From Escherichia coli (lineage in GTDB: Bacteria > Pseudomonadota > Gammaproteobacteria > Enterobacterales > Enterobacteriaceae): a stretch of DNA of 475 nt. Each line of letters starts with the position of its first letter. The stretch's first letter is position 1. A program made the position numbers and the translations under genes. Below, piece after piece: positions 1 through 475 of this stretch. The notes under the pieces are model-generated. The model was not told the DNA's origin. It did not search any database and saw only the letters and a program-made list of their open reading frames with translations. Where the stretch lies: NCBI RefSeq assembly GCF_003334385.1, contig NZ_QOWN01000177.1; one strand, 5' to 3'.

Positions 1-191
1 CCCTTATCCTTTGTTGCCAGCGGTCCGGCCGGGAACTCAAAGGAGACTGCCAGTGATAAACTGGAGGAAGGTGGGGATGACGTCAAGTCATCATGGCCCT
101 TACGACCAGGGCTACACACGTGCTACAATGGCGCATACAAAGAGAAGCGACCTCGCGAGAGCAAGCGGACCTCATAAAGTGCGTCGTAGTC

Positions 192-242
<51 letters not shown>

Positions 243-256
243 TGGATCAGAATGCC

Positions 257-310
<54 letters not shown>

Positions 311-367
311 GGTTGCAAAAGAAGTAGGTAGCTTAACCTTCGGGAGGGCGCTTACCACTTTGTGATT

Positions 368-402
<35 letters not shown>

Positions 403-410
403 GGGGAACC
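403..410 (+). other. rrs: Helix 45 GGAA tetraloop carrying the KsgA/RsmA dimethyladenosine positions A1518/A1519 (window 407-408)
   Basis: GGGGAACC at 403-410, with A407 and A408 mapping to E. coli A1518 and A1519. The loop is universally conserved. Methylation status cannot be read from DNA. Confidence 0.9.
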
Positions 411-423
411 TGCGGTTGGATCA

Positions 424-428
424 CCTCC
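424..428 (+). other. rrs: Anti-Shine-Dalgarno sequence (CCUCC) at the 3' tail of 16S rRNA
   Basis: CACCTCCTTA at 422-431 ends the mature rRNA. CCTCC at 424-428 is the canonical anti-SD that pairs with mRNA ribosome-binding sites. Confidence 0.95.
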
Positions 429-431
429 TTA

Positions 432-475
432 CCTTAAAGAAGCGTACTTTGCAGTGCTCACACAGATTGTCTGAT
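432..475 (+). other. First 44 nt of the 16S-23S internal transcribed spacer (partial; continues beyond window)
   Basis: Sequence immediately 3' of the mature 16S end, CCTTAAAGAAGCGTACTTTGCAGTGCTCACACAGATTGTCTGAT, matches the start of the enterobacterial rrn spacer as I remember it. It is the 3' trailer of the 17S precursor, which pairs with the 5' leader to form the RNase III processing stem (established knowledge). The spacer tRNA gene(s) lie further downstream, outside the window. Confidence 0.9.

Follow-up and report, generated by a model that had tools for sequence, protein, structure and literature searches.

The closest described system is the leader-trailer helix (hLT) of the E. coli 16S rRNA precursor, in which leader nucleotides -128 to -89 pair with nt 1548-1586 of the 3' trailer (Young and Steitz, 1978; PMC10250234). 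The helix ends at -89/1548, includes the leader element boxC (UCUGUGUGGG) and is essential for the formation of active 30S subunits (Warner, Bundschuh and Fredrick, 2023; PMC10250234). Its most critical part comprises leader -113 to -89 and trailer nt 1548-1570. Cutting the trailer back to 1584 is harmless, whereas cutting to 1569 or further abolishes 30S activity; compensatory mutations that restore pairing also restore activity, and covariation support for the helix has been reported in 1,441 sequences (PMC10250234). PMC3996153, citing Young and Steitz, gives the 17S precursor 115 extra nt at its 5' end and 33 at its 3' end, and describes the two ends as complementary.

Two classes of 16S-23S internal transcribed spacer (ITS) are relevant to E. 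coli. In the tRNA-Glu class, tRNA-Glu(UUC) lies ~85-170 nt downstream of 16S; in the tRNA-Ile/Ala class, tRNA-Ile(GAU) starts 69 nt after 16S and is followed by tRNA-Ala(UGC). Four of the seven K-12 operons belong to the first class and three to the second. The DNA analysed here, referred to as the window, is a 475-nt stretch that ends 44 nt into such a spacer. The segment at 432-475 is considered, at a probability of about 95%, to be the proximal, operon-class-independent part of the spacer acting as trailer strand of the 16S processing helix, from which the spacer type of this copy is not inferable. The element is thus the textbook trailer strand, already known and ordinary.

Window content and the 16S/spacer boundary

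The Rfam model SSU_rRNA_bacteria (RF00177) matched window 1-431 at model positions 1102-1533 of 1533 (431.3 bits, E 7.6e-136), and the annotated 3' ends of all seven rrs genes of K-12 MG1655 align with window 431. Because the model end and the seven rrs ends all fall at 431, the spacer is taken to start at 432, which agrees with the sequence-only reading of this DNA and leaves 44 nt of spacer in view. The 16S part ends ...GGATCACCTCCTTA, with the anti-Shine-Dalgarno CCTCC at 424-428. The spacer begins directly after the mature 16S 3' end (...CCUCCUUA) and is identical at 44/44 positions to rrnH, rrnD and rrnG and at 42-43/44 to the other four K-12 operons, as found for ITS sequences of E. coli/Shigella. 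The features of the window, all on the plus strand, are as follows.

1-431, plus strand: 3' part of 16S rRNA (E. coli nt 1112-1542), from the Rfam match, the MG1655 rrs ends and 100% identity to E. coli chromosomes
432-475, plus strand: first 44 nt of the 16S-23S ITS, equal to the pre-16S 3' trailer (nt 1543-1586), from the K-12 operon alignment
432-464, plus strand: probable 33-nt 3' extension left on the 17S precursor after the RNase III cut and later trimmed, from the published 115/33 numbers and the co-fold
437-475, plus strand: trailer strand of the pre-16S hLT, pairing with leader nt -89 to -128, from complementarity, co-fold and the published hLT
446, plus strand: variable site (nt 1557), A in the window, rrnH, rrnD, rrnG and rrnB, T in rrnC, rrnE and rrnA
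452, plus strand: variable site (nt 1563), predicted single-base bulge in the helix, C in the window, T in rrnB, A in rrnA
457-466, plus strand: complement of leader boxC (leader -119 to -110), with a G.U wobble at 458, from the published boxC and the co-fold register

A tRNA search over the whole window found none, an Rfam scan of the window found no family besides SSU rRNA, and an inverted-repeat scan of the window found no internal partner for 432-475. Among 5,426 complete E. coli genomes searched, many chromosomes carry the 475-nt window at 100% identity, and every genome has a match of at least 99% (37,967 copies). Other genera differ from the window spacer at 442-447.

Pairing of the trailer with the 16S leader

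Compared with the published hLT, nothing differs in sequence, register or ends, including the boxC complement at 457-466; the window holds the trailer strand only. The leader strand lies ~1.5 kb before the window begins, so pairing was computed with leaders taken from reference operons that match the window exactly in their 3' sequence. Leader -128 to -112 (counted from the 16S 5' end) is, in each of the seven K-12 operons, a perfect 17-nt complement of window 459-475; this segment starts 3 nt after boxA (TGCTCTTTAACAA), and the leader is invariant across the seven operons in the pairing region. Co-folding of leader and spacer paired 37 of the 44 spacer bases (437-475 with -89 to -128) at a dG of -58.3 kcal/mol, and a hairpin construct of both strands gave z = -12.4, with none of 200 shuffles as stable.

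Similar pairing is found across the family. An alignment of 20 different leader/trailer pairs from enterobacteria has standard pairs in 94.1% of its cells, compared with 29-43% for slid controls, the K-12 register misfitting the distal three pairs in genera that have 2 extra leader nt. One-sided variation occurs in four pairs of this alignment through G.U/G-C or G.U/A-U exchange, including G.U/G-C interchange at the boxC-complement columns. Two-sided change is seen in only one pair, a level reached by 29 of 500 shuffles, and 27 of the 37 pairs are invariant, the helix being too conserved among 20 sequences. The structural support here is hence mainly complementarity, wobble-compatible variation and published mutagenesis, our own covariation signal being weak.

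The RNase III step is taken from the literature, and its position in the window follows from combining that literature with the model. Since leader -115 pairs with window 462 in the co-fold and the published precursor extensions are 115 and 33 nt, the 3' cut would fall after 464, with 463-464 as the 2-nt 3' overhang that is a signature of RNase III. In the nascent rrn transcript, 437-475 would pair with leader -89 to -128, including boxC, about 1.7 kb upstream, so that both strands form a long helix bracketing the 16S rRNA. RNase III would then cut this helix, after window 464 on the trailer strand, and free the 17S precursor, and trimming of the remaining 33 nt (432-464) would produce the mature 3' end at 431.

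Some operons of other organisms depart from this arrangement. In Enterobacter sp. EA-1 (CP025776.1), three loci (L038, L041 and L042) have a 2-nt deletion in the trailer CACACA run opposite boxC. L038 alone has a matching TG deletion in the leader (dG -52.7); with their full-length leaders, L041 and L042 lose ~7.6 kcal/mol (dG -47.9 vs -55.5). Either genuine slippage, partly compensated, or sequencing error of long reads in a dinucleotide repeat could account for these deletions. On a Citrobacter amalonaticus S646 scaffold (L048), the spacer departs from the trailer sequence after GTAGTGT and goes on directly to a boxA-like TGCTCTTTAAAAATC, so that the operon is without the boxC-complementary half of the trailer strand and without a spacer tRNA. 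By the published truncation data, 16S rRNA from this copy would be expected to fail in maturation. The operon may have arisen by recombination, may be dead, or may be an artefact of scaffolding. In Alteromonas spp. (L037, L052), the trailer still has GTAGTGCTCACACAGATTGT after a longer, unrelated proximal segment, which argues that the boxC-complementary core is conserved well beyond Enterobacteriaceae.

Inter-operon variation and the spacer type of this copy

The seven K-12 operons are identical at 42 of the 44 positions of 432-475, as expected from the earlier statement that the proximal spacer is shared or nearly shared among operons. Sites 446 and 452 vary and define four haplotypes.

A446/C452 (the window's own): rrnH and rrnD (tRNA-Ile + tRNA-Ala), rrnG (tRNA-Glu)
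T446/C452: rrnC and rrnE (tRNA-Glu)
T446/A452: rrnA (tRNA-Ile/Ala)
A446/T452: rrnB (tRNA-Glu)

The possibility, allowed for when alignment to the seven reference spacers was proposed, that all operons would be identical over the 44 nt was thus not borne out. The same reading had placed TTTGCAGTGC at 451. The motif occurs once, but it starts at 448, 3 nt away; position 451 reads GCAGTGCTCA, and the variable base is C452. The alternative that it had mentioned, TTTGTAGTGC, proved to be real: it is the allele of K-12 MG1655 rrnB, and the exact 44-mer with T452 is present in about 1,128 of the 5,426 genomes. The rrnB spacer shares 43 of 44 bases and the same helix with the window, differing by T for C at the bulge. 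What had not been noticed is that 452 has a third allele, A452, in 28% of copies, that 446 varies as well, and that the stretch serves as a trailer strand. E. coli E69 (CP089930.1, L023) carries a further haplotype, 442 G>A (GAAACGTAC...) with A452, position 442 being unpaired in the co-fold model.

The window spacer has no mismatch to rrnH, rrnD and rrnG and one or two to rrnC, rrnE, rrnA and rrnB, C452 alone excluding only rrnB (T) and rrnA (A). Upstream, at window 9 (16S nt 1120), the window shares C with six of the K-12 operons, rrnH alone carrying T. The best K-12 assignment is a tie between rrnD and rrnG, because all 475 nt fit both exactly and rrnH is off at window 9. The two tied operons are of opposite type: after the same 475 nt, the rrnD spacer continues GAAAATGAGCAG... 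into tRNA-Ile and tRNA-Ala, and the rrnG spacer continues GAAAAGTGAATAGC... into tRNA-Glu. Whole-window identity was also considered for one tRNA-Glu operon of O157:H7 PV15-279; its 44 spacer bases are identical, but it was ruled out by a 16S mismatch at window 311 (nt 1422), which is G in the window but A in that operon.

All seven K-12 operons are co-linear through 475, the window end being the last base that they share, and the 44-nt piece is common to both spacer classes, which part only from 476 on. Spacers of the tRNA-Glu class continue from 476 as AGAAAG/AGGAAG or GAAAAGTG, and those of the tRNA-Ile/Ala class as GAAAATGAGCAG. Base 476 is A in rrnB, rrnC and rrnE and G in rrnH, rrnD, rrnA and rrnG; base 481 is T (GAAAAT) in the Ile/Ala operons and G (GAAAAG) in rrnG. 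These first class-informative bases sit just beyond the window, which ends one base short of 476.

The choice between tRNA-Glu and tRNA-Ile plus tRNA-Ala, which the sequence-only reading took as given, is not exhaustive for the family, as a tRNA-less spacer class also exists. In Klebsiella michiganensis, Enterobacter hormaechei and Kluyvera ascorbata, these spacers have the same proximal trailer segment after 16S as the window but differ in being about 200 nt long, with no tRNA and with ~36 class-specific nt followed by the pre-23S leader. The class-specific segment had no match in the 5,426 E. coli genomes, so the tRNA-less class was ruled out for the window, for which the two-way choice stands. 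The class was seen at L035, L061 and L065 and on the short contigs L031, L046, L059 and L060, and the pre-23S leader part corresponds to StyR-44 in Rfam.

The linkage between the variable sites and the downstream sequence was examined across E. coli at two levels. At the genome level, the window 44 nt was joined to each continuation type and complete E. coli genomes with the exact junction were counted. The Ile-type junction is exact in about 3,763 of 5,427 E. coli records, with tRNA-Ile annotated under the match in full-length rows among the matches listed. The rrnG-type Glu junction is exact in 987-1,279 records, and the one with the Glu-type continuation AGAAAGTG, a junction that K-12 lacks, in 2,347; an O157:H7 example of it has an annotated tRNA-Glu downstream. 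About 69% of genomes thus have the window haplotype next to tRNA-Ile, and at least 43% have it next to a Glu-type continuation.

At the copy level, a 44-nt T452 megablast query is blind to C452 copies (longest exact run 23 nt, word size 28), so that its match total is no denominator; because of this seeding failure, 30-nt queries (window 450-479) were used. These have 452 and 476 inside every 28-mer and count only exact allele combinations. As G476 copies include both Ile/Ala and rrnG-like Glu spacers, the counts below describe continuation class and not strictly tRNA content; the A476 continuation is tRNA-Glu wherever checked (K-12 rrnB, rrnC and rrnE; O157).

C452 copies: 12,376 with G476; 11,943 with A476
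T452 copies: 1,346 with G476; 1,039 with A476
A452 copies: 5,763 with G476; 4,852 with A476

The classified copies total 37,319 of 37,967 (98.3%), with allele frequencies of 65.2% for C, 28.4% for A and 6.4% for T. G476 accompanies the C allele with a probability of 0.51, the T allele with 0.56 and the A allele with 0.54, which corresponds to a Cramer's V of 0.037 and a likelihood ratio of 0.95 for C452. Even T452, confined in K-12 to a tRNA-Glu operon, occurs with both continuation classes in other E. coli. The SNP at 452 is genuine and frequent, yet uninformative about spacer type. The alleles at 446 and 452 are unlinked from downstream tRNA content, and the window does not allow the spacer type of this copy to be called, as the sequence-only reading had held.

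The variation may be tolerated because of where it falls in the helix. In the co-fold, 452 is a single-base bulge in all four K-12 haplotypes, and its equivalent is always a bulge, occupied by C, U or A, in 26 leader/trailer pairs (Enterobacter, Klebsiella, Citrobacter, Kluyvera, Leclercia, Phytobacter and others). In the A446 form, the partner is U-99 and A-100 is bulged (dG -58.3); in the T446 form, the partner is A-100 and U-99 is bulged (dG -58.1 kcal/mol). With 452 bulged and 446 paired as either A or T in this thermodynamic model, both sites would be free to vary at positions to which the helix is indifferent. Gene conversion, known to homogenise rrn copies (PMC8022953), is the presumed cause of the missing linkage: the operon classes are homologous from 16S up to and including base 475, and conversion tracts ending at the 475 edge would carry the alleles at 446 and 452 from one spacer class to the other. 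The conversion rates behind this suggestion are those of the literature.

Against this background, the use of C452 (with A446) as an operon-specific marker that assigns the copy to one operon or spacer type appears very unlikely. Within K-12 the idea has some appeal, as T452 is private to rrnB and A452 to rrnA, A446/C452 leaves rrnH, rrnD and rrnG as candidates, and 16S position 9 of the window reduces these to rrnD or rrnG. The two that remain are nevertheless of opposite spacer type, and population-wide every 452 allele is about equally frequent with both continuation classes (P(G476) 0.51-0.56), as is also evident from the window haplotype being found beside tRNA-Ile and Glu-type sequences alike. 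The marker idea is thus largely refuted; of the earlier proposal of an inter-operon SNP useful for assigning this copy, the SNP stands and the assignment does not. For the copy itself, origin from a tRNA-Glu operon is favoured at little better than even odds over the complementary tRNA-Ile/tRNA-Ala operon. The K-12 prior of 4 to 3 leans to Glu, 49% of C452 copies have the A476 continuation, and part of the G476 copies are rrnG-like Glu spacers as well. On the other side, the window is equally identical to rrnD, and its exact haplotype is joined to the Ile-type sequence in the 3,763 or so records counted above; with a likelihood ratio of 0.95 for C452, the estimate therefore stays close to the prior.

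Two further readings concern function. Homogenisation by gene conversion means that conservation among paralogs alone is no proof of function, and the 44 nt could accordingly be regarded as a functionless stretch linking the 16S gene to the spacer tRNA, which concerted evolution alone has kept conserved. This is practically excluded by the near-perfect 37-bp complementarity to the leader (z = -12.4) and by pairing that is kept in Enterobacter, Klebsiella, Citrobacter, Kluyvera, Leclercia and others though unpaired positions differ; the published truncations that abolish 30S activity and the compensatory changes that rescue it (PMC10250234) already refute it. At the opposite end, the bulged base 452 (C, A or U) and the A/U at 446 might fine-tune how fast RNase III cuts or how fast the 3' end is trimmed. 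Both sites lie inside the most critical trailer segment, nt 1548-1570 (window 437-459), and tuning would imply that 16S matures at slightly different speeds per operon, a form of operon-specific ribosome biogenesis; the idea is nonetheless regarded as highly improbable. The reading as a class-independent trailer strand is preferred to both; the small inter-operon differences would then be structurally neutral within an essential processing helix and would be exchanged among operons.

For practical purposes, the first 44 nt of the E. coli spacer are unusable for rrn operon typing or spacer tRNA calls, and 476 and 481 are the first bases usable for spacer class. ITS typing primers and the assignment of rRNA reads to operons should be anchored downstream of 475. 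Beyond such bookkeeping the result matters little.

Window matches in unusual records

Ten matches to the window are on plasmid records in the E. coli genome collection. In an old Nissle 1917 assembly (NZ_CP007799.1), the window matches at 19 places, and the best match is in two pieces spanning 658 bases for the 475-nt query, which may reflect assembly problems in rRNA regions. In addition, an enterobacterial 16S end with spacer start is present in assemblies labelled Oxalobacter sp. (a MAG, L049), uncultured Desulfovibrio sp. (L064) and Chryseobacterium sp. 18061 (L072-L073). The Oxalobacter-labelled sequence is of the E. coli rrnC/E type and the Desulfovibrio-labelled one of the rrnA type; binning or culture contamination is the most likely source of the enterobacterial sequence in these assemblies.
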